Origin: Candidatus Thorarchaeota archaeon
GTDB lineage: Archaea; Asgardarchaeota; Thorarchaeia; Thorarchaeales; Thorarchaeaceae
Direction: 5' to 3'
DNA length: 29,915 nt
Assembly: GCA_016839445.1 (NCBI GenBank)
Contig: JAEOUG010000082.1
Span: 1-29,915 of the forward strand
Shown: one piece after another, positions 5,781 to 21,936 of the stretch
Position numbering within the stretch: the first letter of the stretch is position 1
How the letters are laid out: every line of letters begins with the position of its first letter
The notes under the pieces: generated by a model
Told to the model about the DNA's origin: nothing
Databases searched by the model: none
What the model saw: only the letters and a program-made list of their open reading frames with translations
Position numbers and translations under genes: made by a program

Positions 5781-5942
5781 AGACTCGAAAAGAATCGAAA
5801 AAGCCTTTATAACATCTCAAATATGGTCGGAATTTCTATCAGATGTCTAAATCACCCTCTGAATCTTCTTACTTGTTTTCGGTGTTCTTGGGTAAGTTGA
5901 ACAATGAATTTGCCTCGTACTGAGTACAGGTGAAATGACAAG
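5741..5942 (+). promoter_or_regulatory. Duplicated cis-regulatory region, copy 1 (between regulator A and the recombination operon)
   Basis: Shares ATGCAyTTCyGTGAC, TGGTCGGAA, CTAAATC and TGGGTAA with 23637-23850 at a constant offset of 17,896, plus AGGTGAAAyGACAAG. Confidence 0.75.
5796..5812 (+). promoter_or_regulatory. Candidate BRE-TATA promoter (CGAAAAAGCCTTTATAA)
   Basis: Purine-rich BRE-like run followed by TTTATAA at 5806-5812, ~125 bp before the first operon gene; not conserved in copy 2. Confidence 0.45.
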
Positions 5943-6702: not shown

Positions 6703-7154
6703 TGTTAACACAGGAGTACGTATCGTGGGAGATAGGGTTGGTCTACGATGTCATGGATGAGGCTTGGCTGGCTGGTGCCAAGGCTGGCATCACACAAAGA
6801 GAGGGGCCAACATCTGACGAGGAATGGTTGGACTTCATTGAGAGCCTTAGAGTCATCCTGGATCGGATGCCGGAGGTGAAGGCTGCCGAGCCGGGTACTG
6901 CACCATCAGAGAGGTCTCTCTATGATGCACTTGGCGGCTATGTGAGTTTGACTGGCTGTCTTGGTATGGGATTTCTTTCGTTTCCTGTACCATTGATTCG
7001 GCAGGCCATGGTTCTCTCGTTATTTCCAGGCATGGATGTACGCGCAAGAGGCTCAGTGGTGAGCATCCCATATGGGGAGCTTCTGCGCTTCACCAGACTA
7101 GTCCCTATCAGAGGCCCACTGCAGGATGACCTCGGGAGGGTCTGCGATGACTGA
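6699..7154 (+). CDS. Hypothetical protein
   Basis: 151-aa ORF, SD GGAGGTGG, overlaps both neighbours. Confidence 0.75.
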   Translation: MMLTQEYVSWEIGLVYDVMDEAWLAGAKAGITQREGPTSDEEWLDFIESLRVILDRMPEVKAAEPGTAPSERSLYDALGGYVSLTGCLGMGFLSFPVPLIRQAMVLSLFPGMDVRARGSVVSIPYGELLRFTRLVPIRGPLQDDLGRVCDD

Positions 7155-8202
7155 CCTTGAGGCGGTTCCCGGAGTCGGCCCGGCGGCAGCGAAGAAGCTC
7201 AGAGAGGCATTCATCACAACCGCAGAACTTCTGAGTGTTCAGAATCCGGCTGAGTTACAGGAAAGGACCAAGCTGGGTGAGGGTACGGTATCCAAGATCA
7301 TCAAGAGCGCGAGGGACATGACTGGCAAGTTCGGCTTCCGGTCAGGTCTTGAGATAGAGGAGGAAATGCTTACGACCCCACGGCTCACCTCAGGGCTCCC
7401 CAGCCTTGACGAAGCGCTCTTTGGAGGCATCGAGGCAGGCTCCATCATGGAGTTCTATGGCAGTGCAAGAGGTGGGAAGACACAATGGTGTGCTCATCTC
7501 GCAGTTCGTGCACAACTCCCCGAGGATCAGGGGGGTCTCGCTGGTCGAGTCCTCTGGCTTGATACGGAGTCAAGCTTCAAACCTCATGTCATAAGAGCGA
7601 ATGCCGTACGATGGGGTCTGGACCCTGACGCTGCACTCGCCAACATCGGAAGGGCTCAGGTAGTGCTTAGCGGACAGATTGAGGAGATCTTCGAGACCAT
7701 TCCGCAGTTGTGTGCCGAGCAGGACTACAAGCTCGTGATCGTGGACTCGTTGACTGGTCTCTTCAGAGCCGAGTACACAGGACTTGACTCGTTGAGAATC
7801 CGACAGCAAGACATCAACAGACTTCTGAATCAGATGAGGCGAACTGGCACAGCAACTGATGCCATCTTCGCCTACACCAACCAAGTCATGGCCAAGATTG
7901 CAGTCTATGGTGGAAACCCGAACGCTCCTGTGGGCGGTCACATAGTGAGTCACGCATCCGACTACAGGTTCTACGTGAGGAAGGCCCTCAAAGAGAAGCG
8001 GAAGATAGACCTCCAGGACAATGCAGGCGTTCCAGAATTCTCGAAGGAGTTCGTACTTGGTTGGGGCGGATTCTATGAGGACTCCAAGGCATGCAAGCAA
8101 TCAGAAGCGAAGATACAGAAGTACTTCGATGAAAGGGGTTGGGGAATGAAGGAGAGAGAGGAGCCGGAGGAGGAGAGCGACTCAGAAGAAGCGGAGGAGT
8201 AG
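7147..8202 (+). CDS. radA: RadA/Rad51-family recombinase (divergent full-length paralog)
   Basis: N-terminal HhH (DLEAVPGVGPAAAKKL), polymerisation motif FRSG, Walker A GSARGGKT, LDTE, Walker B LVIVDS, FRAEY..RQQ, TNQV, GGHIVSH; acidic tail. Start moved to ATG 7147 (SD GGGAGGG). Confidence 0.9.
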   Translation: MTDLEAVPGVGPAAAKKLREAFITTAELLSVQNPAELQERTKLGEGTVSKIIKSARDMTGKFGFRSGLEIEEEMLTTPRLTSGLPSLDEALFGGIEAGSIMEFYGSARGGKTQWCAHLAVRAQLPEDQGGLAGRVLWLDTESSFKPHVIRANAVRWGLDPDAALANIGRAQVVLSGQIEEIFETIPQLCAEQDYKLVIVDSLTGLFRAEYTGLDSLRIRQQDINRLLNQMRRTGTATDAIFAYTNQVMAKIAVYGGNPNAPVGGHIVSHASDYRFYVRKALKEKRKIDLQDNAGVPEFSKEFVLGWGGFYEDSKACKQSEAKIQKYFDERGWGMKEREEPEEESDSEEAEE

Positions 8203-8212
8203 GTGGCAGAGC

Positions 8213-8653
8213 ATGAGTAAGACTAGAGGGATGATTAGGATATACAGATGCTCAAGGTGTCATAACGTAGGCTATTCTCGAGTGAGAGACCAGTCTGACG
8301 ACTCCATGTGCAGTCTGTGTTCCGCGACGATTACGCATTCGCCAAGTGCGATTTACGTCGACACGCCTGAAGAGGCGCAGCAACGGATGAAGAGCATGAT
8401 ACTACGGGCTGGACTCGAAAAGCCAGGAGTGAAGCGTGGTCTTGGTGTGAAGAAACGAGTGTTCAACATAGTCCTCTCACTTGTCGAAACCAACCGTGGT
8501 CGTCCTGTTTCACGGGAGCAGATTATGCAGGAGTGCAATGACGCAAAGATTGCCGATGACAAGGCCCAGAGTTTCCTTGAACAGCTGGAGGATGAGGGTC
8601 TCGTTATCAGTGACGGGAGTCTGATCACGGTTTCAGGAGGTGGTGTCACTTGA
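8213..8653 (+). CDS. Zn-ribbon + C-terminal winged-helix protein (DUF1922/DUF5817-like from memory)
   Basis: CSRC...CSLC followed by DTPEEAQQRM; C-terminal VSREQIMQEC...KAQSFLEQLEDEGLVI winged helix. Confidence 0.7.
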   Translation: MSKTRGMIRIYRCSRCHNVGYSRVRDQSDDSMCSLCSATITHSPSAIYVDTPEEAQQRMKSMILRAGLEKPGVKRGLGVKKRVFNIVLSLVETNRGRPVSREQIMQECNDAKIADDKAQSFLEQLEDEGLVISDGSLITVSGGGVT

Positions 8654-9240
8654 CCGCAGAAGCCGTTCAGTCAACACCACGAGCCTCAGTGATCAGTCTG
8701 GCCAATCTCCTCCAGAGGGACACTCCAAACAGGATAGCCATTGTTTCGACAGCCCTACCAGAGATAGACCCAGAGCTGTATGTCGTGACGAAGACAGAGT
8801 GGAAGAACCCAAGAGAGCCACTCCTTCATCAGCTTCCTCGGCTTCTCTCGAATCTGGAGGCTCTACGGGGCACACGGGGAGTACCATCCGAGGTGTATCT
8901 GGACAGCAACGATGGCATTGCTCTCTACTTGCCTACAGGAATACACGTGTCAGACATACCTATGGATCCAAAGAACGCCGTGCTGTTCCTGAAAGAAGTA
9001 ATCAGAGATACAATCGACTTCTACATCACAACAGTGAAGGATGTAGAGGCTCACTTCTGGAAGTTCGCCAAGAGGGAGGGATTCAGCAAGACGATTGTAG
9101 AGAAGATTGGCAGGAAAGAGGAGGGATTCCGATCTAGGTCCACCCTCTCTCGGTTCCATTCTCTCATGAGGCAGTACTTCTCCATTAAGTTCAGGATTCA
9201 TACCTCAGAGTCCTGCTTGAGGGTGGAGGGGCCGGTATGA
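8650..9240 (+). CDS. Hypothetical protein
   Basis: 196-aa ORF, TTG start in a TTGA overlap with SD GGAGGTGGTG; ATGA overlap with the helicase gene. Confidence 0.75.
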   Translation: MTAEAVQSTPRASVISLANLLQRDTPNRIAIVSTALPEIDPELYVVTKTEWKNPREPLLHQLPRLLSNLEALRGTRGVPSEVYLDSNDGIALYLPTGIHVSDIPMDPKNAVLFLKEVIRDTIDFYITTVKDVEAHFWKFAKREGFSKTIVEKIGRKEEGFRSRSTLSRFHSLMRQYFSIKFRIHTSESCLRVEGPV

Positions 9241-11207
9241 GCGCCGCCGCCCTTGATCCAATGGTGTGGTTTCCATACGAACCTAGGCCACATCAGGACA
9301 GGGCGGTGAAGTTTGCATCTCGGGTCTACTCTGAGAAGACTGTTGGTCTTCTGTCCGCTGACTGCGGCGTTGGAAAGACCATAGCAGTGCTCTCGGGGTA
9401 TTTGGCAGTACGAGCTAGAGACCCTTTCTCAAGGCTCCTGGTGCTCACACGCACACACTCGCAGTCTAAGGTCTTCGAAGAGGAGCTGACGGAGCTTCGA
9501 CTACATGATCCTGGAGAGGAGTGGCGCACAAACCTCACCGCCACTAGTATGGTGTCTCGAGTCCATGTGTGCCCCATGAAAGGACGCATGGAGCAGCTCA
9601 CAACGATGGGGTTCACGAAGCAGTGTGCGAAACTTGTCAAGACTGGCCAGTGCTCGTTCTACTGGAACTGTTACTCAAAGGGGAAGGGCGAAGTCCGTGT
9701 TCTTCCGAGGCCGTTCTTCAGAGAACAGGTGGAGTCTCTTCTGGCCACGCAGATTGTGACACGGGAGGCTGCTGAGAGGCTCTCGGAGTCTACGGGTTTC
9801 TGCCCCTACGAGGTCCTTCGATGGTGTGCAAAGAGCAGCCGCGTCCTAATCGGCCCCTATGACTACGTGTTCCGAGAACGAGTCAGGGACGCTCTTCTCT
9901 CCTCGGTTGGGTGCAATCTAGGCGAAGTCGACATACTAGTGGACGAGGCTCACAACCTCCCCGATCATGTTCTGAACTCGGAGGCCGCTGAGCTGAGCGG
10001 CAGAGACCTACTCTGGCTGAGGAAAAACAAGAAGCTCATCGTTCGTGACACTGGCGTCAAGTGGCTTGAGGACACTGTAGACTTCCTGTGGGAAACCGTG
10101 ATGCTCAGTCTCGACGGACTAAGGGATGAGAAGCGGCTTAACACGTGGGATGTATTCCCGCGTTTCGCAGACCCTTCACAGCTGAGCCAGCTTATGGAGT
10201 TCGACAGCGCAGTTGAGGGGATGGAGGACGCAATCCCAGTTGATACTCCTTTGGACCGTCTAGTGGCCTTCCTGTACTCGGGCCACAGGTCTGCCCAAAG
10301 CGAGGATTGGCTGGTCACGATTGAGCTCCTCGGAGCAGGCGAGGAAAGGTCTGAGGTCGAGGTCTCAAACACCCTACTGCGGATACGCCCGTTGAATGCA
10401 GCTGGTCTGATAGCTCCTGTCCTCAGGAGTGCGAGGTCTGCTATGGTCATGTCAGGGACACTGCGACCGACGGAGCACTACGGCAGGATGCTCGGCATAT
10501 CAAGCGCAGAGAAGGAGGACCTGCTAAGCCCCTACCCAAAGGGGACTCGGCTCATTCTCGTTGACAAGGAGGTTTCGACGAAGTACACTCTCCGAGGGCC
10601 ACTTATGTGGAGAAGGATTGCAACCCGCATCGAGACTGCTCTGCGTAGCCTGCCGCCCAACAAAAGCGCGCTAGTGTCGTTTCCGAGCTACGCGATAATG
10701 CAGGAAATCCTCAGCTACGGAATCGATTGCGGATTCAGGGAGATGCTTGTCGAGGACAGAACAATCAGAATCGAGGACGTTGAGGAGTCCGTTCTTCTCA
10801 CTCCTCATGCAATCTTCTGTGTTTACGGTGGGAAGATCAGTGAGGGAATAGACCTTGTCGAGAATGGCTCCAGCATGATCGACCTGATAATTGGCACGGG
10901 AATCCCGTTCTCGCCACCGAGCAGTCATCAGAAAGCCCTTCAGGATTTCTATGACAGAAGGTACGGCGACAAGTCTGGATACTACTACTCAGCAGTATTG
11001 CCGTCGATTCGCCAGGTCGTACAACTCGCAGGGAGGCTAAGGAGGTCACCAGAGGACAGAGGCGTTGTCGTGCTGCTTGACAAGCGATTCCTGAGATACA
11101 TGAATGCGTTTGGAGACGATGCCGCCTCAGACCTGTGGCCATTTGCCGGCGACCAAGAGCTGGCTGATGCCATTGAGCTCTTTGTCAGGGAGGTTGCAGC
11201 TCAATGA
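9237..11207 (+). CDS. xpd: XPD/Rad3/DinG-family Fe-S cluster SF2 DNA helicase
   Basis: Q motif FPYEPRPHQ, Walker A ADCGVGKT, four Fe-S cysteines (VCPM, QCAK, QCSFY, FCPYE), DEAHNL, SGTL, FPSY, GKISEGID, QLAGRLRRSPEDRGVVVLLDKRF. Confidence 0.92.
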   Translation: MSAAALDPMVWFPYEPRPHQDRAVKFASRVYSEKTVGLLSADCGVGKTIAVLSGYLAVRARDPFSRLLVLTRTHSQSKVFEEELTELRLHDPGEEWRTNLTATSMVSRVHVCPMKGRMEQLTTMGFTKQCAKLVKTGQCSFYWNCYSKGKGEVRVLPRPFFREQVESLLATQIVTREAAERLSESTGFCPYEVLRWCAKSSRVLIGPYDYVFRERVRDALLSSVGCNLGEVDILVDEAHNLPDHVLNSEAAELSGRDLLWLRKNKKLIVRDTGVKWLEDTVDFLWETVMLSLDGLRDEKRLNTWDVFPRFADPSQLSQLMEFDSAVEGMEDAIPVDTPLDRLVAFLYSGHRSAQSEDWLVTIELLGAGEERSEVEVSNTLLRIRPLNAAGLIAPVLRSARSAMVMSGTLRPTEHYGRMLGISSAEKEDLLSPYPKGTRLILVDKEVSTKYTLRGPLMWRRIATRIETALRSLPPNKSALVSFPSYAIMQEILSYGIDCGFREMLVEDRTIRIEDVEESVLLTPHAIFCVYGGKISEGIDLVENGSSMIDLIIGTGIPFSPPSSHQKALQDFYDRRYGDKSGYYYSAVLPSIRQVVQLAGRLRRSPEDRGVVVLLDKRFLRYMNAFGDDAASDLWPFAGDQELADAIELFVREVAAQ

Positions 11208-11797
11208 AACGCACGACACACTGGCTCCTTCTTTGGGTCTTGCTCGTGTCAGTCGCCGCAAGCTCCCTTGTGGTCGTTGTAACGGCTGAAACGCTGGCTT
11301 TGCGAATCATAGCATTGGCGACCATAGCTGTGGTCGGGATGTGCAGTTACGTTCTCTTGTTCAGAAAGTCTACTCCCCAGATCTTCTGGGACGAGGAGAT
11401 GGGAATCTTGTTATTGTTTGGAGTCTGGAACGTTGAAGCGAGAGCAGCTCGTCTTCTTAGGAGTGTTCCTATTGGCATAGACGTTTCCTACTCGGCGAAG
11501 AAAGTAATGCAGGCGATGAGTGAGAGGCTGCCCAAGAGTGGAAACTGCAGGTTGGACTTCGTGGTCCACCGGCCTGTGGGGAACAGCTCGACCCGCGCAG
11601 GGTTCATAGTAGCTCGATCCAAGTTCATCGGATTGCTCAGCAAGAAGCGAGTCAACGACCTCTGTGATTCTGTGTTTCAGGACGCCACAGTATTGGAGAG
11701 CGCGATGCGGTCATCGTATCCGCACACTCCGGTAGAGAGAGGTGAGCTAGAGGACGTGCGAATGATCATGACTGGGGGCACTAGCGTTGTTGTCTGA
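11204..11797 (+). CDS. Membrane protein (two N-terminal TM helices + soluble alpha/beta domain)
   Basis: Hydrophobic residues ~7-27 and ~30-54; ATGA overlap; SD GGAGGT. Confidence 0.78.
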   Translation: MKRTTHWLLLWVLLVSVAASSLVVVVTAETLALRIIALATIAVVGMCSYVLLFRKSTPQIFWDEEMGILLLFGVWNVEARAARLLRSVPIGIDVSYSAKKVMQAMSERLPKSGNCRLDFVVHRPVGNSSTRAGFIVARSKFIGLLSKKRVNDLCDSVFQDATVLESAMRSSYPHTPVERGELEDVRMIMTGGTSVVV

Positions 11798-12065
11798 AGG
11801 GCAAGAGGTGATATCGCTGCCGATTCCTCCAAGAGTCAAGATCGGTGCCGTCACAGCATTCCTCGGCAACGGCCATGGATATCGTTGGACTACAATCTCC
11901 TTCACTCCAGTTAGGATGGAGCTGGGCAGATCCTCAAAGAGCGAATTGCCGGACCTCGTGATAGTTGGGAGGACGCTCTACTCGAATGGAAACTCGCAGT
12001 CTATTCATGAGCGTCTGGGAATGGTGCTAGATCATCTTGACAGGCAAGCTGGAGGTGGAATCTGA
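11787..12065 (+). CDS. Small hypothetical protein
   Basis: 92-aa ORF that exactly fills the gap between coupled genes; its 3' end carries the SD GGAGGTGG for the next gene. Confidence 0.65.
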   Translation: MLSEGQEVISLPIPPRVKIGAVTAFLGNGHGYRWTTISFTPVRMELGRSSKSELPDLVIVGRTLYSNGNSQSIHERLGMVLDHLDRQAGGGI

Positions 12066-14387
12066 TTGTCAGGGTCAAAAGCAAACATTCTGGGTTCTAA
12101 ACCTGCAGAAGATCCCATGGACCTCATAGAGTCGAGAAGCAGAGGCACGGTGAGGAACACAGAGATTCGGTGGGATGACCGCTCCATCGGATACCCGGTG
12201 GACAAGATGGCGGGGCTTGGACTGCTAAGCTTTGCACTGGGCGTCTTGCAGCCGGCTCTTGCCCTTGCAGCGGCTTGTACCCTCCTAGCTGTGCTCTTCG
12301 TGCTTCCTAGGTTGCGGGTTCACTTGGGGGGGCTCGGCGCCTCGTCGGAACGTTGGGCTGAGGTCAGTCAGGCAGACATTGCACTAGAGTCCGAGGACAA
12401 GGTGGTTAGGAGCAGAGGAACGGGCAGAGACCGGTTCATCACAGCTCTGGAGGCTCAGCATATTGGGGCGATTCTGCCAGGTAACTTAGGCAAGGTGATT
12501 CGAGGTGTTGACACAGACTTCGGGATTCAGCTCTCCGTGAGTCTCTCGCCTCAGGATTCCAATGGTGTTGTGGAGGATGGAGTCCTAGATGCTTCTCTTG
12601 TTTCGTACCTTGAACAGAACTCCTCCGAGCAAAGACGCGCATACTTCTATGTCCGCGGAGGTGTTTGGAGGACGGGCCTCAGACTGATTGGGTCTTCATT
12701 CGATCCTACGCACCTTAGGCTCTTCGAGAGCCAGATCCTTGGCAGTCTTCCTGTGAGTGGGCTCAAGGGGGTGAGTCCTCAGAGACTCTCTGAGCAACTC
12801 TCCAATTGGGACGCAACCTCCAGCGAGCAGTCTTTCATGGCCGCCGGAGTTGAGCTCAGTGAATGGCTGGTTCAGATTCCAAGCGAACTTGCCCCTGAAG
12901 TCGGCAGCAATGTCCCTGGCGAGTTCATCTCCCCCATCAGAGCGAACTTGATGGATTACCGTATCGGCCTGGCAATCAATCCAGAAACACTCAAGGATGG
13001 TCCCCCCGTCGGCTTCTCTCACTCCAATCTAGAGGCGGGACTCCTCGTCTGCGGTGGAGACTGGAGCGACAGACTCGCTGCTATATCGGTACTCGTTCGT
13101 GAGTTGCTGAATCTCGGGAGAAGGGTCTTGATAGTATCTCAGGAAAGAGAGTCTATTCGGCTTGCAAGCATTACAGATGGTGGTATCGGGATGACCCTCG
13201 GGCAGGACCTGATAGTCAATCCTGTTGACTCCGAAGGGATCCGAAGGTCGAAGTACGTTTCTGAGCTTCTTCTTGCCTTCGAAGGCCTCGCGGGCGTGAA
13301 TCTCAGCGCGGCAACTGACTTTGAGGTTGCACTCAACCGTGTAGTGGCCTTAGGTAATGGCACAGTAGCAGATGTCACTCTGAATGAACTCGCTGAAGAC
13401 ATGGAAACAGGAAGGGTTCCGGGGAGCACCAGCTCACGCGAGTCGAGACTGGCCTTGGACTCGATTCGCAGGCTCCACGAAGGGTCTGGAGCACAAGCAT
13501 TCTACGGAACACAGACCGCATCTATGAAGCGCATCGCAGAACAGGATCTTGCAGTCATTGTGATTCCCTTCGAGTCTCCTGACCTCACCATGTTCGCATA
13601 CGATATACTCTGTCTGAAGCTCTCTGGCCTCGAACCTGATCCTGACCTAGTGGTGATCTTGGACTCACCAACCAATCTCCTGGTTAGCGGAAGCACATTC
13701 AGGTACACGAAAAAGAGCATCATGGCAATCTCCCAGGTTAGAGATCTTCTAAGGAGGGGTCCACTAGTTGCCAGTATCAAGAGCCCCGCAGGCTTACCCA
13801 ATGAGTGCGCAGACTCGTTCGGCTCATGTCTGGCTCTGCGCCTGCGCGAAACCCCTGATATCGCGGCTGTTTCCGACCTGCTCTCATTGAGTGTTGTGGG
13901 CGTCGGCATACACAGCAAGAAGAGAGTATCTTCCAGAGAGAGCTCATTCTTGAGGGTGATGGAGCCTAATCAGGCGCTTCTCTCACATCCAGAGATGAAG
14001 ACCTGTGTCCCAGTCAGGTTAGATTCTCCTCCCCCGCTTGAGCACCTTAGCTCCTCAGTAGTCCATGGGATTAACCGTGAGGAGAGATCATCTAGTGACC
14101 GAAAGAAGACCCTGCTTGAAACCATTGGGGGCAAGGACAGCCAGTCTCTCGTCCAGGTACTAGGCCTACTGACAAAGTACGAGCCACTTACTGAGCAGTC
14201 AGTTGCGCAGTTCCTGAAGGCAAGTGGATCTCCCGATGTTGACGTTGAGGCAACTCTCGCTCGACTGGAGAAGGCCAGCATGATTCTGAGGGGTCAGGAA
14301 ACCCACGGGGGAGTGTCTTACACAAACTACCGCATTACTATGAAGGGCACAATGGCACTAAGGCAGGCCGAGGGGGTGTCTGCGTAA
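12066..14387 (+). CDS. Membrane-anchored HerA/VirB4/TraD-like P-loop protein with degenerate Walker motifs and C-terminal winged helix
   Basis: N-terminal TM hairpin, then YRIG...VGF...LLVCGGDWSDRL (Walker A position), RVLIVSQ, IVNPV, VVILDSPTNL (DEAH position), LVASIKSPAGLP...GSCLALRL...D, LRVMEPNQALL; wHTH ending YRITMKG. Confidence 0.65.
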   Translation: MSGSKANILGSKPAEDPMDLIESRSRGTVRNTEIRWDDRSIGYPVDKMAGLGLLSFALGVLQPALALAAACTLLAVLFVLPRLRVHLGGLGASSERWAEVSQADIALESEDKVVRSRGTGRDRFITALEAQHIGAILPGNLGKVIRGVDTDFGIQLSVSLSPQDSNGVVEDGVLDASLVSYLEQNSSEQRRAYFYVRGGVWRTGLRLIGSSFDPTHLRLFESQILGSLPVSGLKGVSPQRLSEQLSNWDATSSEQSFMAAGVELSEWLVQIPSELAPEVGSNVPGEFISPIRANLMDYRIGLAINPETLKDGPPVGFSHSNLEAGLLVCGGDWSDRLAAISVLVRELLNLGRRVLIVSQERESIRLASITDGGIGMTLGQDLIVNPVDSEGIRRSKYVSELLLAFEGLAGVNLSAATDFEVALNRVVALGNGTVADVTLNELAEDMETGRVPGSTSSRESRLALDSIRRLHEGSGAQAFYGTQTASMKRIAEQDLAVIVIPFESPDLTMFAYDILCLKLSGLEPDPDLVVILDSPTNLLVSGSTFRYTKKSIMAISQVRDLLRRGPLVASIKSPAGLPNECADSFGSCLALRLRETPDIAAVSDLLSLSVVGVGIHSKKRVSSRESSFLRVMEPNQALLSHPEMKTCVPVRLDSPPPLEHLSSSVVHGINREERSSSDRKKTLLETIGGKDSQSLVQVLGLLTKYEPLTEQSVAQFLKASGSPDVDVEATLARLEKASMILRGQETHGGVSYTNYRITMKGTMALRQAEGVSA

Positions 14388-16579
14388 TGAGCGCCGTAGT
14401 GAGTGTACCGGACAACGTCACACGAATCTTGGAGGAGGTAGGAGTTACTCCCCGAGGTATTCAGATACAGGCTATCGATGCTGGTCTGTTACATGGTGAG
14501 AGTATTCTGGTCACTTCCCCCACAGGCTCAGGGAAGACGCTCATCGGAGAGATGGGTCTTCTTAGGGCGGTCTTGGCTGGTCGTCGAGGTCTCTACTTGG
14601 TTCCTCTGAGAGCACTAGCGCACCAAGTTGCGAGGTCTCTGAAGGATCGATATGACGGAAGAGCGGTCAGAATCGGAGTGACTACCGGAGACCTCCACCT
14701 CTCTGGTGAAGAGATGGCTGGTTTCGACGTAGTGGTGACTACCTATGAACGAGCAGACTCCTTACTGAGACATCAGGCTAGTTGGCTCTCTGAGATTGGC
14801 ACGGTGGTCATTGATGAGATTCAGACAATGTCGGAGGGGCGGAGAGGTGCAAGACTTGAGAGCGTCATCCTCCGTATCAAGCGAATGATAGGAGATGTGC
14901 AGCTGATTTCGCTCTCAGCAACGGTGGACCAGCCGCAGGAACTTGCATCGTGGCTGGACGCGAAGCTGGTAGCTTCCACGGAACGCCCTGTACCTCTTGT
15001 CTATAAGATGTTCACCACCTCAAATCGGCATCTTACGGTTCGAACTGCCACGATGGCCGTTGTGCAGTCAGAGGGTCAAGTAATCGTGTTTCACAGGACT
15101 CGGAGAGAAGCGGAGGCAGAAGCCGAGAGGCTCTCTGTCCATGTGGGGCGCCAACTAGGAACCTCTGAGAGAGACCTGCTTGACAGAGAGTTGGACTCCT
15201 TCTCTCAAAGAGAGACTACCTTGAGCGGGCAGCTTCGCAAGCTTCTGCACCACGGTGTCGCCTTCCACCATGCTGGAATCCCGTCTGGCCCGAGATGCTT
15301 GGTTGAGGACCTCTTCAGGAGGGGACTGATCCGAGTAGTCTGCGCCACCACAACGCTTGCCTCCGGAATGCATCTTCCTGCCAGGACGGTAGTACTCGCT
15401 AGCACACGTTCTCCTGAGAACCACAGGGCCCTTCTCTCAGCAAACTCTGTTCATCAGATGCTTGGCAGAGCTGGTCGGCCCGGTTACGACAGCGCCGGGT
15501 TCGGTGTTGTTCTGGTGGGCAGCAGGGGAGAATCTGATGTGGCGAAGAAGCTGTACTTTCATGTATCTGGAGAAGATGGACGGGAAAAGCTCTCTCCTCG
15601 GTACGATTCTGTGTCCAGCGCCTTGGGCTCTTCCGACCACCTTACTGAGCAGGCTCTTGTTCTGCTCGATCTCTTAGGAGAGGCGACACCTGAAGAGATC
15701 GAGGATGCACTCTTAGATTCTTACTACGTGCACTCAGGCGCGAGACGGTCAAGAAGCCCAATGCGACTGCTCATTGTGGAGTCAGTTAGCGCTGAAACCG
15801 CTATCGAACGCCATGGTCTGAGTGACACAATCAGGGCAGGGAGGGAGGGAGTGCTCGGGAAGGCTGGCATTAGAGAGTCATCTCAAGAGGTGATTGGTGG
15901 AATAGTTTCTGGCTTTCAGGGGGGTCATTTCACCTGCAGATTCTCTGCTCGCCTCAATACCAACGGCACAATAGAGGGGGCTAGTTGCTCCTGTGGCAGT
16001 CCGATAGAGGAGGGCATTCTATGTGTGCATCTAGTAGCACTTGGCTTGCAGGCCGTGCGCGACCCTCAAGCAAGTTCACTGGCTGACTATGTCATTCCAC
16101 TTGCTCTGGATGAACATGCCCCACTGGGAACTCTGACTCGACTTGGCCTAGTAGAGGCAGGGCGAGAGAAACCGTACCAAATCTCAAGGCTTGGCCGATT
16201 GGTGACCCGGCTGTACCTGAGCATCTCAACGGCGAGAGAGCTTCTCGCATGTATACCGTTCACAGATGATCCAGTTGGCTTGATGTCCCTGCTCCGTCAC
16301 TTGCTAGCCATTGAGTCTGATCTCAGACTTGATGAGTCGTTTGACCAATTCATAGGGGCCGTAGCCACGACCACAACGCCAGTCCGGGAGGTCGCCGAGT
16401 CATGTGGAATTCCTCTCGGAGATGCATTTGGCCTTCTGGACCGGTCTCGGTGGATGCTTCATGCTATCAGCGTTTTGTCGGAGCATGGTGGCCTTGAGAG
16501 ATTGAAGGACATCAGCGGAAGCCTACTGAATGCGGTTAATTCCAGACTTGAAAGGAGGTCTGTAGATGGAGATAGTTGA
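14387..16579 (+). CDS. hel308: Hel308/Ski2-like SF2 helicase with inserted SWIM zinc finger
   Basis: SPTGSGKT, VPLRALA, TTYER, DEIQ, SAT, RPVPL, FHHAG, ATTTLASGMHLPA, QMLGRAGRPGYD; SCSCGSPIEEGILCVH (CxCx9CxH). Confidence 0.88.
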   Translation: MSAVVSVPDNVTRILEEVGVTPRGIQIQAIDAGLLHGESILVTSPTGSGKTLIGEMGLLRAVLAGRRGLYLVPLRALAHQVARSLKDRYDGRAVRIGVTTGDLHLSGEEMAGFDVVVTTYERADSLLRHQASWLSEIGTVVIDEIQTMSEGRRGARLESVILRIKRMIGDVQLISLSATVDQPQELASWLDAKLVASTERPVPLVYKMFTTSNRHLTVRTATMAVVQSEGQVIVFHRTRREAEAEAERLSVHVGRQLGTSERDLLDRELDSFSQRETTLSGQLRKLLHHGVAFHHAGIPSGPRCLVEDLFRRGLIRVVCATTTLASGMHLPARTVVLASTRSPENHRALLSANSVHQMLGRAGRPGYDSAGFGVVLVGSRGESDVAKKLYFHVSGEDGREKLSPRYDSVSSALGSSDHLTEQALVLLDLLGEATPEEIEDALLDSYYVHSGARRSRSPMRLLIVESVSAETAIERHGLSDTIRAGREGVLGKAGIRESSQEVIGGIVSGFQGGHFTCRFSARLNTNGTIEGASCSCGSPIEEGILCVHLVALGLQAVRDPQASSLADYVIPLALDEHAPLGTLTRLGLVEAGREKPYQISRLGRLVTRLYLSISTARELLACIPFTDDPVGLMSLLRHLLAIESDLRLDESFDQFIGAVATTTTPVREVAESCGIPLGDAFGLLDRSRWMLHAISVLSEHGGLERLKDISGSLLNAVNSRLERRSVDGDS

Positions 16580-18173
16580 ACACGAAGTAACAGAGTCAGC
16601 AGGAACGGAAGAGAACGAGATTGAGAGGCACCTTAAGCGAAATGACTATCGAGTGTGCCAGTACCCCAATGGGTTGACCATGGGTCTCAGACTCCAGAGT
16701 GTCCCCGGCTCTCGCGGCGTAAACGTCGACGTAGTCCACATTCTGGACATGCGCATAGCTAGGTTCGGTAGAACTTCCTTGGCTGCTCAGTCGGCGGTTC
16801 TTGAGACCGTGTGCAAAGACACTCGACTCCTGCTTGCTGACGTGGGACTTGGTTCTCTCTTTGAAAGCCAGGAGATTGTCACCCCGTTCGGCAAGAGTGT
16901 ACTCCGTGTCCTTCGGCTACCAAAGGCCTCTCAGGCATCTCTCATCTACGAAACCCGGAACGTCTATGGTGTGTATTCAGATGCAAGCGTGCCGCCCTCA
17001 ACCCTGGAGTGGTTGACTGAATCCTCCAAGATGATTAGAGTAAGTGAACTTGAGCTCTTACACAGGAGTGATTCAAGATCCTCGCTTCAGGAGGTGAAGA
17101 AGGCTATTGACTCCGGCAAGTGGAAAGAGCTTGAGAAGGGCCACAGGGCAGCATGGTGGAGTCTCCTTCCACTTATCACCACAGTCGCATCTTTCGTGGG
17201 ATTCATGGCGTCAATAGTCACTTCCTCAGGCACTCTGCTAATCCCGTTGATGACGCTCGCTGTGTCAGTGCCCCTTCTGGCCTGGTTAGCAAGGACCGCG
17301 ACAGCGGCGTTGGACGCGTTCAACGAGGCTCTAGTAACCGAGAAGGCCCACCTAGAACGGGCTGGCGATGTCAATAGAATCAGAGAGGCTGTCCACGCCG
17401 GCGAAGAGAAGCTCCGACTCGTGGGGAACTTGAACTTCATTGTCACTCCCCTGATGGGTGGCGCGGGTGTAGCAATCGAGTCTGGTGATGTTGCTTCTGC
17501 CGCATCTTCTCTCTCCGCAATCCTAGATGAGTGCGTTGTACACTCTCCTGGGCTTGAGGGTGAGAAGGGGTTGGTTGGTGATCTGGGGCTTAAGAAGTTC
17601 ATCGAGCTCTTTCTCTACTTGGGCCTGGATCTCTCCGAAGATGAAGAGATGGAACTAAGTCTTGCTTATGCAGCCCTCACAGGTCACAAGTCAGCGCCGC
17701 TGGCTCAACACGAGATTATCCATCACATGGGAGTCTTGAACAATGCATTGTTTGATTGCGGAATCCTCAGTGCCGACGTCAAGTCCTCCATTGACGACAT
17801 GATGAATCTTCGGGCCGCGGGAGGATATGTCATAGAAACAGTGCGTGATGAAGCATCTGAAGAGATTGCTGAGATTCCCGAAGGTGACGAAGAGGGCTCT
17901 TCAGGAATAGATGATGAAAGTCTAGCAGAGATGAGTTCGGCGGCTTTGAAAGCCAGCGGGGATGAAGATGTCGTCGAAGCAGCAGATGAGGATGACTCGG
18001 AGCCGATTCTTGTTGCAGAAACAGTCCAGACAACCCTTGATGCGAGTGACGATCTCCCGAAGGCCAGTCCTATCGAACACGAGACGGCCGAGGGAAGAGT
18101 CGCAAAGGCAGTTGAGGAGCGCTCGGAGAGTTCCTCATCGAAGAAGAAGGAGCGCGAGGCCATTGAAGCTTGA
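16566..18173 (+). CDS. Membrane protein with central TM hairpin and acidic low-complexity C-terminal tail
   Basis: WWSLLPLITTVASFVGFMASIV / LLIPLMTLAVSVPLLAWLA; D/E-rich final ~110 aa; SD AGGAGGT. Confidence 0.8.
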   Translation: MEIVEHEVTESAGTEENEIERHLKRNDYRVCQYPNGLTMGLRLQSVPGSRGVNVDVVHILDMRIARFGRTSLAAQSAVLETVCKDTRLLLADVGLGSLFESQEIVTPFGKSVLRVLRLPKASQASLIYETRNVYGVYSDASVPPSTLEWLTESSKMIRVSELELLHRSDSRSSLQEVKKAIDSGKWKELEKGHRAAWWSLLPLITTVASFVGFMASIVTSSGTLLIPLMTLAVSVPLLAWLARTATAALDAFNEALVTEKAHLERAGDVNRIREAVHAGEEKLRLVGNLNFIVTPLMGGAGVAIESGDVASAASSLSAILDECVVHSPGLEGEKGLVGDLGLKKFIELFLYLGLDLSEDEEMELSLAYAALTGHKSAPLAQHEIIHHMGVLNNALFDCGILSADVKSSIDDMMNLRAAGGYVIETVRDEASEEIAEIPEGDEEGSSGIDDESLAEMSSAALKASGDEDVVEAADEDDSEPILVAETVQTTLDASDDLPKASPIEHETAEGRVAKAVEERSESSSSKKKEREAIEA

Positions 18174-18846
18174 GTCACTCTTGGGAGAGAGCAACTTTCT
18201 CCACATCTGGGGTCAGGCTGGAACTGGAAAAACGCTTCTAGCAACAGCGCTGGCTGCACAAGCGAGCCGATTGGGGATTGTGGAGTATATCAACACAGAC
18301 GGCAAGAGAAGCTTCATACGCGCTCTCAAGAGACACACCAGCTCTTTTGGCGGGCTTACCTCAAGAATCCGGGTGACGTTGGCAGACGGCGCATCTGAAG
18401 CCTTTGGCGCAGTTAGGTCCGTCGCTTCATCGGTTTCGCCCGAGACCAGCATGGTGGTCGTCGACCCGATTACTCGCGTCCTCGACATGTCGACAGTTGA
18501 TGATGTGATGTGGGGCCAAGAAATGATGGAGGAGGTTCTTCCATCACTCGTTGCCCTCGCCGAAGGAGGAATCCGCGTTCTGGTAGTTAGTGAAGTCCGA
18601 AACACAGACGTCGGGCTTCTACCTGTGATGTATGACTCCGTGAATCGCTGGAAGCCCCGGAACTTGAGAGCAACCAGAGGTCCAGGAAGGCATTCTACGC
18701 TCATGCTACCTACCCCTGATGGAGAAGAGGTACTTGCGCTGATGAGGGTAGATGACAGAGGCTGTCTTTGGCTAGACTATCCTGCCGGGGCGCACATTCT
18801 GAGTGAGGGTGAGCAATCATGTTTGGAAAGACAATCATGCGTGTGA
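18163..18846 (+). CDS. RadB-like short RecA-family ATPase
   Basis: Walker A GQAGTGKT, YINTD, Walker B VVVDP, VSEVR. Start reassigned to TTG 18163, overlapping the upstream stop; the ORF-track extension from 17962 shadows the upstream gene. Confidence 0.8.
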   Translation: MKLESLLGESNFLHIWGQAGTGKTLLATALAAQASRLGIVEYINTDGKRSFIRALKRHTSSFGGLTSRIRVTLADGASEAFGAVRSVASSVSPETSMVVVDPITRVLDMSTVDDVMWGQEMMEEVLPSLVALAEGGIRVLVVSEVRNTDVGLLPVMYDSVNRWKPRNLRATRGPGRHSTLMLPTPDGEEVLALMRVDDRGCLWLDYPAGAHILSEGEQSCLERQSCV

Positions 18847-19787
18847 TATCTTATGCAGTGGCAGGGGCAATAGCAGTCCTCCTGGGAGGTAGGTTGCTCA
18901 GCTCTGTTGCGTCGGTTGTTTTGGCCTGGAGACTCGGCAATCCGCTTCCACTTGCTGTTGTGACGGTTGGAACAGTGCTCCTCGTCTTCCTATCGCGAGG
19001 CGAGGCCACGACACTGCCACTTATGATTCTGAACATCATCTCATGGATTGCGTCAGCGTACATGTCTGTCGTCGTCTTCTTTGTGGCCTTGCCCTTTGGC
19101 CTAATCCTTGGTTTCACAGCGATGGCTGTAAGCCTCATTGCGGTCAGCGTAGTCAAGGACACCAGAGGCCTTGGAGGACGAGTCCGCAGCATGATCGAGC
19201 GCACAGCGATTCTTGGCGCCTCAATCCCTCTCCTCGGCCATGAGATGGATGACTCGGGCATGTTGTCATCTTTGGGCCGGCGTAACTTCGTCGCGTTTCT
19301 CGTGTCCCGAAATGAACGTGGACGGATTCTGCAGTTGATGCGGGAACGGCCTCTGCTACCAATATCCCTCTCAGGATACGAGGAAACCGACATCCTCTTT
19401 GTTCGAGATGATGGTGCAAATGCCGCCCAGATTGAGGTGCTTCTCAGAGATGCCGGCGTGGACGGCCTTGAGAAACTCTCATCCTTCCATACTAGTGCAG
19501 TCCTTAACCTTCCACTCATAGAGAAACGAGAGGAGGTCCATACACCCTCCGAGTATGTCTTCTGTCATGATGTTGCCACCGTAGACAGGCTCGTTGAGGT
19601 CTGGCCTAAGAGAATGACCCTGCACCCCAGTAGGTCTGGAGTAATAGCGATAGCGAGTGAAGACGCCGTTCCAGGATTTGAGACCCAGCCAATACCGAGA
19701 GGCCTACGGTCGACGGTCGTCATGGAGAGAAACGTTTCATTGCTTGAAGCCGGAGGGAAAGATGTTGCCGCAGAGCCTGCCGCTTAA
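18819..19787 (+). CDS. Polytopic membrane protein (~4 N-terminal TM helices + soluble C-domain)
   Basis: Hydrophobic first ~112 aa; SD GAGGGTGA; overlaps both neighbours. Confidence 0.78.
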   Translation: MFGKTIMRVISYAVAGAIAVLLGGRLLSSVASVVLAWRLGNPLPLAVVTVGTVLLVFLSRGEATTLPLMILNIISWIASAYMSVVVFFVALPFGLILGFTAMAVSLIAVSVVKDTRGLGGRVRSMIERTAILGASIPLLGHEMDDSGMLSSLGRRNFVAFLVSRNERGRILQLMRERPLLPISLSGYEETDILFVRDDGANAAQIEVLLRDAGVDGLEKLSSFHTSAVLNLPLIEKREEVHTPSEYVFCHDVATVDRLVEVWPKRMTLHPSRSGVIAIASEDAVPGFETQPIPRGLRSTVVMERNVSLLEAGGKDVAAEPAA

Positions 19788-20484
19788 CAGTGTGGAGTTT
19801 GAAGACAGACCTTTCGTCCAACTACGTCCCAGACAGCTTGACCAGACGCTTGGAAGAGTCCTTCTTCCCTCACAGGTCAGTCTGGTTCACGGTCCTGATC
19901 GGGCTCCCCTCACTCTCGTGGCCCATGCCGTCACTGCTGGTGTGGTATCTGGCGGAGGTAGATGTCTCTTCTTGGACTCTGGCGGTAACTACAACCCGAA
20001 CCTCATTCGTGCCATGCTTGGCGAAAGCGACCCTGAGTCTGTCGGGCGAATCATTGTCGGCCCCGTCTTTGGCCTCACAGACCTCACCGAGGCTCTGAAG
20101 ACAGTGAAGCCATCTGATGGAGTTCTGGTCGTGGTGGTGGACAGTCTGACCGGAGTTCTCAACCTCACTGGTGACTCTGGTTCTAAGGAGCGACAAAGGG
20201 ACTTGTTTGGAGCCCTTGAGGAACTCAGGAGGACTGTCAACAGTCACGGAGTCCATGCTCTCCTGACAGACCACTCGAGTAATGATTGGAGGACCGGCGA
20301 GAGACGCGTAGTGGGAGGTAACGTCTTGCAGCACAACATTGACACATCTGTCTACTGCTCCTGGATCCGGAAGATAGAGGACGGTATCCTCCTCACGGTA
20401 GAACGCAGTCCTGTCTTTCCTCCCCCTACGTCGGTTGCCGTGAAGCTTGGCGTTCGAGGACCAAGGTCTCCAAACAGGAGGTAG
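19762..20484 (+). CDS. RadB/Rad51-paralog-like protein with inactivated Walker A
   Basis: LDQTLG...VSLVHGPDRAPLT (GKT lost), LFLDSGGNYNP, Walker B VVVVDS, ERQRDL, VVGGNVLQH. Start reassigned to ATG 19762 (SD GGAGGG). Confidence 0.78.
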   Translation: MLPQSLPLNSVEFEDRPFVQLRPRQLDQTLGRVLLPSQVSLVHGPDRAPLTLVAHAVTAGVVSGGGRCLFLDSGGNYNPNLIRAMLGESDPESVGRIIVGPVFGLTDLTEALKTVKPSDGVLVVVVDSLTGVLNLTGDSGSKERQRDLFGALEELRRTVNSHGVHALLTDHSSNDWRTGERRVVGGNVLQHNIDTSVYCSWIRKIEDGILLTVERSPVFPPPTSVAVKLGVRGPRSPNRR

Positions 20485-20489
20485 CAGAG

Positions 20490-21479
20490 CTGGGTGTCAA
20501 GAACTGGGGGAAGATGATTCCATGGCGATGGGCAAAGGTGGAGGAGCTCGAGCCAAGGATCTTGGCCTTTGACAGCCCCAATTACCTCTCTCGCAGGCTC
20601 TCTGTCGTACGTCAACAGCGCTTCGATAGAGTCCCACTAACTCATGCCCACCTGTTCCTGGCGACGGTGCTTTCTTGCTTACGCAATCATGTCCTTCCAG
20701 TCTTTGTCTTTGATGGCCCTCCGGAACATCTCAAGAGGAAGGCAAACCCGAGCCTTATCCAGAATTCCGAGAGACTCTATCGAAGATGGAGGGCTGATTC
20801 ATTGGCGGGCTCGCCAGACATTGATCTCTCCTGCTTTGCGAGTCCGGCGGTGAGGCTCTACTTCGGCCTCTGCCACATCAAGGATCTTTGCTCTGCGTCA
20901 GGTATGCCAACCGTGCTGGCACCATCTGAAGCCGAGATGTCAGCTGCTGTGTTGAGTCGCGAGGGTAAAGTCGGGTCAGTGGTATCAAATGACGCAGATG
21001 CCCTGCTCTTCGGTGCTTCTCATGTGACCCGGAGCGTCAGGTTCTCAAAAGGGGAGATTGAGCGTGTCCTCATGAGAGACTTGCAGCGCAGACTAGAGCT
21101 TGACCTGGAGCAGATGAGGGATCTTGCGATCATCTGTGGCTGTGACTTTCATCGAGAGGGCATTCGAGGAATGGGGCCTCATAAGGGCGCAATAGCCCTC
21201 AAGAGACACGGCGGATTAGAGCCTCTTCTCAGAGCCATGGGAGTGACGCCTAGCGAGATTGAGAAGTACATGAAGGCGAGGGACGTGTTTGACGAGGGCC
21301 ACTATATCAAGCTTGGAGTCGAAAACCTTGTGCTCAAGCCGCCTGTGTCTGCTCGTGTGACAGAGCTGCTCCAACCGGCCCTTGGCCAAGAGACTGCTGA
21401 GAAGAGGTCCATGGAGCTGCTACGCCTCTGGAAGGACTTCGGGAGAGTTCAGATGACCCTCGAGGGGTGGATTGCATGA
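20490..21479 (+). CDS. fen: FEN1/XPG-family structure-specific nuclease with PCNA-interacting (PIP) box; probable CTG start (first ATG at 20514)
   Basis: (M)GVKNW N-terminus, ILAFD, PVFVFDGPPEHLK, APSEAE, SNDADALLFG, helix-hairpin GCDF..GIRGMGP, C-terminal QMTLEGWI. Confidence 0.88.
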   Translation: MGVKNWGKMIPWRWAKVEELEPRILAFDSPNYLSRRLSVVRQQRFDRVPLTHAHLFLATVLSCLRNHVLPVFVFDGPPEHLKRKANPSLIQNSERLYRRWRADSLAGSPDIDLSCFASPAVRLYFGLCHIKDLCSASGMPTVLAPSEAEMSAAVLSREGKVGSVVSNDADALLFGASHVTRSVRFSKGEIERVLMRDLQRRLELDLEQMRDLAIICGCDFHREGIRGMGPHKGAIALKRHGGLEPLLRAMGVTPSEIEKYMKARDVFDEGHYIKLGVENLVLKPPVSARVTELLQPALGQETAEKRSMELLRLWKDFGRVQMTLEGWIA

Positions 21480-21936
21480 TTCTGAAGAGGTGTTGAAGAT
21501 GAGTAGTGACGCAGGTTCTGATGTGCTTCGTATTGAGAACAGACGTGAGATCATAAGCGATGTTATCGAGTTTGCCCGGAGAGTGAGGATTGCACTATCA
21601 CTTGAGAAGGCAGGTGAGATGGAAGTGATAGTGCACGATCGTTCGGCTCAACTCTGTGCACTGGTGGGGCAGGGCGGCTTTGTACTTCTAGGACTCAAGA
21701 GCGAACTGGGTTGCAGAGGAGACCCTGAGATCTCGTTGAGAGTGGACAGGGACTGTGAGAATCCAGACGTCTACAGGGTCGAGGGCATTGCGATATCCCT
21801 CGAGACTGGCCCAGAGGAGGTTTCTGTCAGTCAAGTCAGCAATTGGATAAGGGAAAACGGTATTGATGAATGTGAGAACATCACCATTACGGAAGAGGGC
21901 GGTCACCTACGCATATTGATTGATGTCCTAACTTAA
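21472..21936 (+). CDS. Hypothetical acidic protein, last gene of operon
   Basis: 154-aa ORF overlapping the fen stop; its stop abuts the convergent gene. Confidence 0.7.
   Translation: MHDSEEVLKMSSDAGSDVLRIENRREIISDVIEFARRVRIALSLEKAGEMEVIVHDRSAQLCALVGQGGFVLLGLKSELGCRGDPEISLRVDRDCENPDVYRVEGIAISLETGPEEVSVSQVSNWIRENGIDECENITITEEGGHLRILIDVLT

Follow-up and report, generated by a model that had tools for sequence, protein, structure and literature searches.

A Hel308-type helicase with a SWIM-like insertion and no domain 5 in a conserved recombination gene array of Thorarchaeota

A Hel308-type superfamily 2 (SF2) helicase of 730 amino acids (aa), which carries a SWIM-type module inside its winged-helix domain and ends without the C-terminal domain 5, is encoded by the open reading frame (ORF) at 14387..16579 (+) in a stretch of contig JAEOUG010000082.1 from Candidatus Thorarchaeota archaeon (assembly GCA_016839445.1); the whole stretch of 29,915 nucleotides (nt) that was analyzed is referred to here as the window. 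The explanation that we regard as probable, although by no means secure, is that this protein is an active, ATP-driven DNA helicase/translocase of the Hel308 type that belongs to an Asgard-specific sister lineage, carries a zinc SWIM module in its winged-helix domain, has lost domain 5, and is a dedicated member of a conserved recombination operon. From archaea to humans, helicases of the Hel308/HELQ group keep recombination in check. In a literature search, no account of a SWIM module in Hel308, Hjm, or HELQ came up, and the module is not mentioned in excerpts of a 2024 survey of archaeal Ski2-like helicases that covered 27 Thorarchaeota genomes (PMC10946056). The protein represents a distinct helicase subfamily for which this search returned no published description, and the genes encoding SWIM helicases are currently annotated merely as “DEAD/DEAH box helicase.” How Hel308 and HELQ are steered toward Rad51-family proteins is described as an open question in excerpts of PMC13623763; the operon is a defined, co-expressible protein set that could reveal how a winged-helix finger and partners in trans replace the control exerted by domain 5.

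The assignment to Hel308, which had been proposed from the letters of the DNA together with the DEIQ motif II and the missing C-terminal helix-hairpin-helix (HhH) domain, was borne out by both sequence and fold comparisons. In a phmmer search of PDB sequences, the best match was Afu Hel308 (2p6r, E 5.7e-74, residues 12–448), and the further matches were likewise Hel308/Hjm chains (9b15, 2zj2, and 2va8), with coverage restricted to residues 12–450. An AlphaFold2 model of the whole protein, built on an alignment of 27 orthologs, has a mean predicted local distance difference test score (pLDDT) of 86.6 and a predicted template modeling score (pTM) of 0.83; when this model was searched with Foldseek, Hel308/Hjm structures ranked first (template modeling score 0.65–0.76 over ~760 alignment columns), followed by POLQ helicase domains and Brr2.

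The ATG of the gene shares 1 nt with the TAA that ends the upstream gene (TAATG). The RecA1 core (residues 25–183, 14459..14935; Pfam DEAD, E 2.3e-29) contains the Walker A motif PTGSGKT (14519–14539), in which P45–T51 are invariant in the 27 orthologs, and motif II, read as DEIQ (D143 E144 I145 Q146; 14813..14824) within VIDEIQTM, the translation of 14807–14830; D143, E144, and Q146 are invariant in 27/27 orthologs. The RecA2 core (Pfam Helicase_C, residues 272–366, 15200..15484) includes motif IVa, FHHAG (15263–15277), and motif VI, QMLGRAGRPG; residues 292–298 read AFHHAGI, with H294, H295, A296, and G297 invariant, as is the motif VI region from Q357 to P365. Motifs I, II, III, IVa, and VI are thus conserved throughout the 27 orthologs as PTGSGKT, DE[IV]Q, SAT, HHAG, and QMLGRAGRPG, respectively. 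A β-hairpin of RecA2 (15557..15598), formed in the model by strands 391–396 and 399–404, is presumably the strand-separation pin, a role that we carry over from Hel308 structures. The F/YHHAGL form of motif IVa is given as a Hel308/HELQ motif in excerpts of PMC10484726. Glutamine at the last position of motif II was found in seven of 41 SWIM-bearing rows of the wider alignment (histidine in 32), versus one of 83 rows without the SWIM signature, and on this count DEIQ is not a family trait of SWIM-bearing helicases.

The feature that sets the protein apart is a ~105-residue insertion inside winged-helix domain 3. The first half of this domain (15599..15748; helices 416–430, 435–442, and 446–454) is followed by the inserted SWIM module (residues 455–562, 15749..16072), which consists of two short helices, a four-stranded sheet, and a helix, and then by the second half of the domain (16073..16222), which includes ISRLGRLVTRLYL (residues 596–608). 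Two observations define these borders: canonical Hel308 aligned to the protein shows a single ~100-residue gap at the site of the module, and in the model the module lies between winged-helix helix 446–454 and the remainder of the domain from residue 563. The sequence-only reading had placed the module between the helicase core and the wing/ratchet segment; the location can now be refined to the interior of the winged-helix domain. The signature itself, CSC-x9-CVH (CxC-x9-CxH), lies at residues 534–548, and translation of 15986–16030 as CSCGSPIEEGILCVH gave the coordinates exactly as first read. The β-strand-like segments suspected ahead of it appear in the model as four strands (492–498, 502–508, 514–523, and 529–534), with C534 and C536 closing the last strand and C546 and H548 opening the helix (547–558) that begins at the C-x-H.

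Conservation of the insert centers on these four putative zinc ligands, C534, C536, C546, and H548 (15986..16030, +). Together with S535, they are invariant in 27/27 orthologs that share 49–86% identity with the window protein, and further insert residues that are invariant within Thorarchaeia include G504, G505, R518, S520, G531, L549, V550, and G553. Among 31 inserts from diverse Asgard lineages, with 18–61% identity, the four putative ligands are present in 31/31 and form the only invariant columns; such a pattern goes beyond chance. A model of the insert alone (pLDDT 86.0) was compared with 48,161 PDB representatives by a method independent of Foldseek, and its top match was residues 115–216 of ZSWIM8 (9rwz_M; Z 6.3, root mean square deviation 3.8, 90 aa), the sole match at Z >= 5; the next reached Z 4.0. 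ZSWIM8 ranked first for the insert in two independent fold searches. A SWIM-like fold is thus predicted and the Cys/His residues are conserved in orthologs, so that two of the outcomes named beforehand as refuting the sequence-only proposal did not occur. The matched region encloses the zinc-binding SWIM domain of ZSWIM8, residues 172–208, which organizes protein–protein assembly (PMC13083262, excerpts). With the Pfam SWIM model (PF04434; gathering cut-off 19.6 bits), the insert alone scored 20.4 bits, just over the cut-off, and a 779-aa Baldrarchaeia-labeled relative (L040) with an insert at the same site scored 27.7 bits. We conclude that a SWIM-type module is genuinely present, with fold evidence of moderate strength, and that C534, C536, C546, and H548 would be expected to bind zinc.

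Beyond the winged-helix domain, the protein continues only through the ratchet domain 4 (16223..16552, +; helices 613–722 in the model), of which residues 668–709 gave a weak phmmer match to the Afu Hel308 ratchet (chain residues 578–619), and it ends 41 residues past W689. A Pfam scan of the protein produced no HHH match, and this tail of 41 residues past the ratchet tryptophan compares with 114–122 in four canonical Asgard Hel308 proteins, so that domain 5 is absent and not just diverged. In Hel308, domain 5 brakes the ATPase and helicase activities and serves annealing (PMC13623763, excerpts). The source genome assembly (2.9 Mb, 190 contigs, 89.8% complete) also encodes, on a separate contig, a canonical Hel308 of 740 aa with DEIH, Helicase_dom4_arc (96 bits), and HHH_5/HHH_2, and the SWIM helicase gene is therefore a paralog. 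The canonical gene (contig C20, 1420–3639) lies 20 bases downstream of, and on the same strand as, an MCM-like gene (2–1399), a label that is a reading of its translation. A further helicase of this genome, the ASH-Ski2-like protein of 875 aa (contig C62, 823–3447), has a DEIQ motif II and an N-terminal zinc finger, and its DUF5814 tail contains CGC-x6-CDH with SWIM-like spacing; identity of this CxC-x6-CxH with the SWIM insert was rejected (hhalign probability 0.1).

The distribution of the architecture was traced at several depths. A search with residues 400–730 retrieved 66 proteins that are 46–100% identical and mostly ~730 aa long, and nearly all of the named ones are labeled Thorarchaeota. 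Of 400 genomes searched in the phylum, 57, all belonging to the window's own family, have a C-terminal match that is full-length (E <= 1.3e-62); the other families gave weaker matches that start at the SWIM signature, and the loci of these weaker matches encode Hel308-like helicases of 710–850 aa with CxC-xn-CxH at the homologous site. The SWIM-bearing relatives are mixed in having DEIH or DEIQ and in being with or without domain 5, although the latter division, made from tail length and with a regular expression, is rough; P0084, for example, has a 203-aa tail of a different kind. Forms that keep domain 5 include the 779-aa Baldrarchaeia-labeled protein (HHH_5) and ~845-aa proteins of another family. 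When 1.84 billion representatives were searched exhaustively with phmmer, 18,127 matches were returned, and CxC..CxH was present at the homologous place (positions ~315–590) in 36 of the best 150 representatives at 50% identity. Ten of the 20 clusters examined bear organism names, and all ten are Asgard (Hermod-, Baldr-, Jord-, Loki-/Prometh-, Hel-, and Heimdallarchaeota, and “Asgardarchaeia”).

The ~845-aa SWIM helicase family (L046 and L093–L098; one cluster labeled Lokiarchaeota) keeps domain 5 and has a CxC-x20-22-CxH loop. When a 100%-complete Loki-type genome (G207) was searched with a canonical Hel308, the one Hel308-like protein matching at E <= 1e-20 was the SWIM form; in this lineage, the housekeeping Hel308 itself may be SWIM-bearing. 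A third, degenerate SWIM relative of 740–811 aa is present in several Thorarchaeial genomes (L044:5596–7809, +; L045:7566–9998, −; and L090–L092). It carries the signature CSCE[SA]WK[YF]Q..CKH (Pfam SWIM ~16 bits in L044 and L045, the two scanned) and is 23–26% identical to the SWIM helicase queries. A motif II of the DExH/DExQ type was not found in it, L044 and L045 have no helicase Pfam match, and no recombination gene is adjacent at the loci examined; judged from its sequence, it looks like a helicase-dead SWIM scaffold.

Phylogenetic trees were computed with the insert columns taken out of all alignments, with representatives restricted to lengths of 640–1000 aa, and with the degenerate paralogs L044 and L045 excluded throughout. 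For FastTree (86 rows, 574 columns), every second SWIM-less representative was dropped; the IQ-TREE quick search and the approximately unbiased (AU) tests used 18 of the canonical rows and left aside seven SWIM rows that were near-duplicates or fragments. In the FastTree topology, 40 SWIM rows and two signature-less rows form one clade (support 96), the 42 canonical rows form their own (support 100), and one SWIM row lies on a long outgroup branch. In the IQ-TREE quick tree (55 rows, LG+G4), the canonical clade again has a support of 100 with the window protein outside it, and the window protein, a Thorarchaeial representative, and a sister-family form are joined with a support of 99. Constraining all SWIM rows to group together improved the log-likelihood (lnL) by 57 over the free quick tree (p-AU 0.958), which is consistent with the insert having arisen once. 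Hel308-like helicases with a SWIM insert are thus found throughout the Asgard archaea, and in the trees they stay separate from canonical Hel308.

The SWIM helicase gene is part of one tight, co-directional array of 15 genes on the + strand (5935–21936), in which stops and starts mostly overlap. The order of the first part is two unknown genes, a RadA-like gene, two unknown genes, an XPD-like gene, an unknown gene, and the gene for a 773-aa protein, followed by the SWIM helicase; thereafter come genes for a 535-aa protein, RadB-like 1, a 322-aa protein, RadB-like 2, a FEN1-like nuclease, and a 154-aa protein. The RadA-like gene (7126..8202; HhH and Rad51, the latter at 184.6 bits) encodes a second recombinase of this type, and the XPD/Rad3-like helicase (9237..11207) matches DEAD_2, HBB, and Helicase_C_2. 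RadB-like paralog 1 (18163..18846; NCBIfam RadB 38 bits versus a cut-off of 172) has an intact Walker A motif (GxxGxGKT), with G17, G22, and K23 invariant in 12/12 orthologs. RadB-like paralog 2 (19762..20484; Pfam Rad51 22.6 bits) has a degenerate Walker A (HGPDRAPLT, without GK[ST]) while keeping the Walker B aspartate, and the P-loop lysine is missing in 11/11 orthologs; by these motifs, the two may constitute a catalytic and a non-catalytic partner. The FEN1-like nuclease (20514..21479; XPG_N and XPG_I) is divergent and a second copy, scoring 112 bits versus a cut-off of 352 with fen_arch. Canonical FEN1 (434 bits) and canonical RadA (315 bits) are encoded on other contigs, C133 and C43, and the recombination and repair members of the array are therefore extra copies.

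The remaining members are less readily assigned. The 773-aa upstream neighbor (12066..14387) has an N-terminal hydrophobic segment or hairpin and is probably a HerA/FtsK/DUF87-like P-loop protein according to language-model features; its listed TTG start adjoins the stop of an in-frame 92-aa ORF, and the true start may lie farther downstream. The 535-aa downstream neighbor (16566..18173), which overlaps the helicase gene by 14 nt, has predicted membrane helices and an acidic tail; no family was obtained from Pfam or NCBIfam, nor a usable match in the protein atlas. The 322-aa hydrophobic protein (18819..19787) has no Pfam match, and an Rfam search over the window returned nothing. Immediately after the array, a 550-aa ORF on the opposite strand (21937–23589, −) has no Pfam match. 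The end of the window (24462–29915, +, running off the end) encodes a protein of >1818 aa with a prenyltransferase-type α–α toroid, Big_1, filamin, and macroglobulin MG4; at a Baldrarchaeia-labeled locus (L041:12286–15528), a 1081-aa toroid protein is encoded directly beside RadB-like and SWIM-helicase genes, a recurrence that may be due to chance.

The gene linkage is conserved. The order helicase, 535-aa protein, RadB-like 1, 322-aa protein, RadB-like 2 is kept in 11/11 Thorarchaeial loci, and the full seven genes from the 773-aa protein through the FEN1-like nuclease are present in eight of these; of the other three, two are truncated by contig ends and one has no detectable 773-aa gene. 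At L049 (G368:C1, ~8566–10398), the helicase position is occupied by a 985-aa frame to which only residues 116–724 of the window protein align and which has no detectable 773-aa gene upstream; a different N-terminus or a fusion is possible. Outside Thorarchaeia, the domain-5-less SWIM helicases of seven families have a RadB-like gene nearby in 8/11 loci and a FEN1-like gene in 4/11, while of the rest, one locus instead has genes of the RadA-like, XPD-like, and 773-aa-like types and two are short contigs. SWIM helicases that keep domain 5, by contrast, have a RadB-like or FEN1-like neighbor in 0/9 loci (three families). At the locus whose helicase is closest to a Jordarchaeum-labeled protein (L039:3008–4184), the FEN1-like gene is followed on the same strand by a Roadblock/LC7-domain gene and a small Arf/Ras-like GTPase gene.

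Several results weigh against the interpretation of the protein as a zinc-SWIM-bearing Hel308-type DNA motor dedicated to this operon. For the module, the Z of 6.3 to ZSWIM8 is middling and under the caution line of 8 of the search tool; when the insert-only model was run through Foldseek, no PDB structure matched at E <= 0.001 and ZSWIM8 led at E 0.086; PDB sequences searched with an insert profile gave no match below E 0.2; and the Pfam SWIM model reached only 16.5 bits on the full-length protein (residues 529–552), under its cut-off, and E <= 0.01 in only 7/31 inserts. For the helicase, the NCBIfam Hel308 equivalog models (NF040935 and related) aligned to residues ~5–450 with 280.3 bits versus a cut-off of 1200 and 331.6 versus 887, and since these cut-offs are far from reached, a different substrate is possible. 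In addition, a DExQ motif is also known from RNA helicases, the protein matches Pfam DEXQc_Suv3 at 34.3 bits, and the ASH-Ski2-like helicase of the same genome also has DEIQ. For the lineage, the deep branching among the other SWIM lineages is poorly resolved in the IQ-TREE quick tree, and constraining the domain-5-less forms to group together was 63 lnL worse (p-AU 0.072), by which a single loss of domain 5, as opposed to several, is neither rejected nor supported. Finally, the neighborhood counts come from related genomes, so that their independence is overstated, and the 190 contigs of the source genome carry an estimated contamination of 6.45%.

With these points taken into account, the window protein is probably the DNA motor of a specialized recombination/repair module. 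In the mechanism that we propose, a ring of RecA1, RecA2, and the ratchet would travel 3′–5′ along single-stranded DNA and open or remodel branched recombination intermediates, which would be built by the RadA- and RadB-like proteins of the operon and trimmed by its FEN1-like nuclease. The SWIM module would form a zinc-stabilized accessory surface on the winged-helix domain, a domain to which substrate recognition is assigned in Hel308 (PMC13623763, excerpts). Its first role is probably contact with the substrate or branch point, or organization of the domain, with partner docking possible on top. This order of roles is the more likely because the insert belongs to the helicase lineage rather than to the operon, which it predates and exceeds in distribution, its greater age following from its presence in the domain-5-keeping forms, none of whose nine loci has a RadB-like or FEN1-like neighbor. 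Because domain 5 brakes Hel308, the forms that lack it would need control in trans; the motor would then be governed by partners, and the RadB-like proteins inherited along with the helicase suggest themselves first for this part.

Four other explanations concern the module, its operon, or the origin of the lineage. The first is that the SWIM finger is a Shu2/SWS1-like dock that recruits the neighboring RadB-like paralogs, one active and one P-loop-less, to the helicase, in an archaeal fusion of the HELQ–Rad51-paralog and Shu themes; this was the proposal of the sequence-only reading, and we consider it possible but clearly less probable than the explanation above. The Rad51 paralogs of the Shu complex are non-catalytic, and the loss of the Walker A lysine from RadB-like 2 in 11/11 orthologs recalls that arrangement. 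The linkage of the domain-5-less helicases to RadB-like genes in both the Thorarchaeial and the other Asgard loci also speaks for docking, as do, in excerpts of the respective papers, the organization of protein–protein assembly by the SWIM domain of ZSWIM8 (PMC13083262) and the binding of HELQ to the BCDX2 Rad51-paralog complex (PMC13623763). However, the insert is also present in the domain-5-keeping forms, which lack a RadB-like neighbor (0/9 loci), and for this reason the finger is not operon-specific. The linkage ties the helicase as a whole to the recombinase paralogs, not the SWIM finger to the RadB-like proteins; the association with RadB-like genes has therefore held as conserved gene order, and the part of the proposal that made the finger the recruiter is unsupported.

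A second explanation, about as tentative as the docking proposal, is that the operon serves membrane-coupled, Ced-like DNA uptake or exchange, with the helicase processing incoming DNA and the SWIM module contacting the 773-aa or 535-aa protein. The genes for both of these proteins overlap the helicase gene; the 773-aa, 535-aa, and 322-aa products all have hydrophobic segments; language-model features of the 773-aa protein match DUF87/HerA/FtsK clusters in the atlas at 0.90–0.92, one of them named “DNA import protein CedB”; and a 773-aa-like gene adjoins the helicase gene in another Asgard order (L038) and lies nearby in L085 and L087. On the other hand, the atlas matches are leads only, without alignment or E-value; the 773-aa, 535-aa, and 322-aa proteins have no match in Pfam, NCBIfam, or PADLOC; no canonical Walker A was seen in the 773-aa sequence; no pilus or channel component was identified in the array; and the clusters of other Asgard families are without these membrane genes. 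That the SWIM module is a structural zinc knot, stabilizing an enlarged winged-helix domain and having no ligand of its own, appears unlikely. The lack of any invariant column beyond the four ligands in the 31 inserts is what would be expected if only the metal site mattered, but many further residues (G504, R518, G553, and others) are invariant within Thorarchaeia and the ~105-residue insert has been retained over many Asgard lineages, which together suggest a conserved surface.

More speculative, and in our estimate improbable, is the notion that the Asgard SWIM-Hel308 lineage was the forerunner of the eukaryotic helicase–Rad51-paralog axis (HELQ–BCDX2; Shu2/SWS1), with a single polypeptide that carried both motor and finger, the finger tying it physically to RadB-like mediators, one catalytic and one not, encoded beside it; in eukaryotes, finger and motor would later have been split into different proteins. 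If the SWIM form is the only Hel308 in Loki-type genomes, as it may be, it would stand near the ancestry of HELQ and POLQ.

The remaining two alternatives concern the cluster and its motor. An anti-virus defense system or mobile element, with the helicase as a HamB-like (Hachiman) effector, is very improbable: the PADLOC HamB and PDC-M23B models match the helicase core with E-values down to 9.6e-45, and a PDB HamB chain matches at E 1.9e-29, but these matches are confined to the shared SF2 core, no HamA or other PADLOC match was found at E <= 0.0005 in the seven scanned neighbors, GC content is even over the window (0.52–0.55), and the gene order is kept across the sampled genera of one family and partly in other families, which argues for vertical inheritance. 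An RNA helicase is the least probable identity of all, despite a DExQ typical of Suv3 and shared with the ASH-Ski2-like protein: the protein is nearest, by sequence as well as by fold, to DNA helicases of the Hel308 type, motif IVa FHHAG is retained, the identifiable neighbors are all DNA recombination/repair paralogs, and sister lineages of the same architecture carry DEIH.

The Hel308-type DNA motor proposed here can be set beside several known systems. With Hel308/Hjm (2p6r, 2zj2/2zj8, 2va8, and 9b15), it shares RecA1, RecA2 with its β-hairpin, the winged-helix and ratchet domains, motifs I–VI, and motif IVa; it differs in the ~105-residue SWIM module, in DEIQ, and in the absence of domain 5, and it is a paralog outside the canonical clade that scores under the NCBIfam Hel308 cut-offs. 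HELQ and the helicase-like domain of POLQ belong to the same five-domain Hel308 lineage, and both keep domain 5, unlike the window protein; HELQ has, in addition, an N-terminal extension. We know of no SWIM module in POLQ. The description of the five domains of HELQ/Hel308 in excerpts of PMC13623763 mentions no zinc module. According to the same excerpts, HELQ works with RAD51 and BCDX2 (PMC13623763), whereas the link of the window helicase to Rad51-family paralogs is one of gene neighborhood. With SWIM zinc fingers (PF04434), the module shares a CxC-xn-CxH that spans the last part of a sheet and the beginning of a helix, as well as a ZSWIM8-like fold, and it differs from SWIM proteins in being embedded in the winged-helix domain of a helicase. 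Shu2 and SWS1 partner Rad51 paralogs, and the likeness of the window helicase to them may be regarded as an analogy. The archaeal Ski2-like RNA helicase ASH-Ski2 resembles the protein in the DEIQ and the cysteine motifs of the copy in this genome, but it belongs to a separate clade, serves as outgroup in the trees, and has a C-terminal region without profile similarity to the SWIM insert. A parallel in layout is offered by Mtr4/Ski2, Ski2-like helicases in which an accessory domain, the arch/KOW, is likewise inserted in the winged-helix domain (PMC10946056, excerpts). The arch has a fold of its own rather than that of SWIM, and Mtr4/Ski2 are eukaryotic RNA helicases; by analogy, they provide a precedent for the winged-helix domain as a site at which adaptor modules may be inserted.

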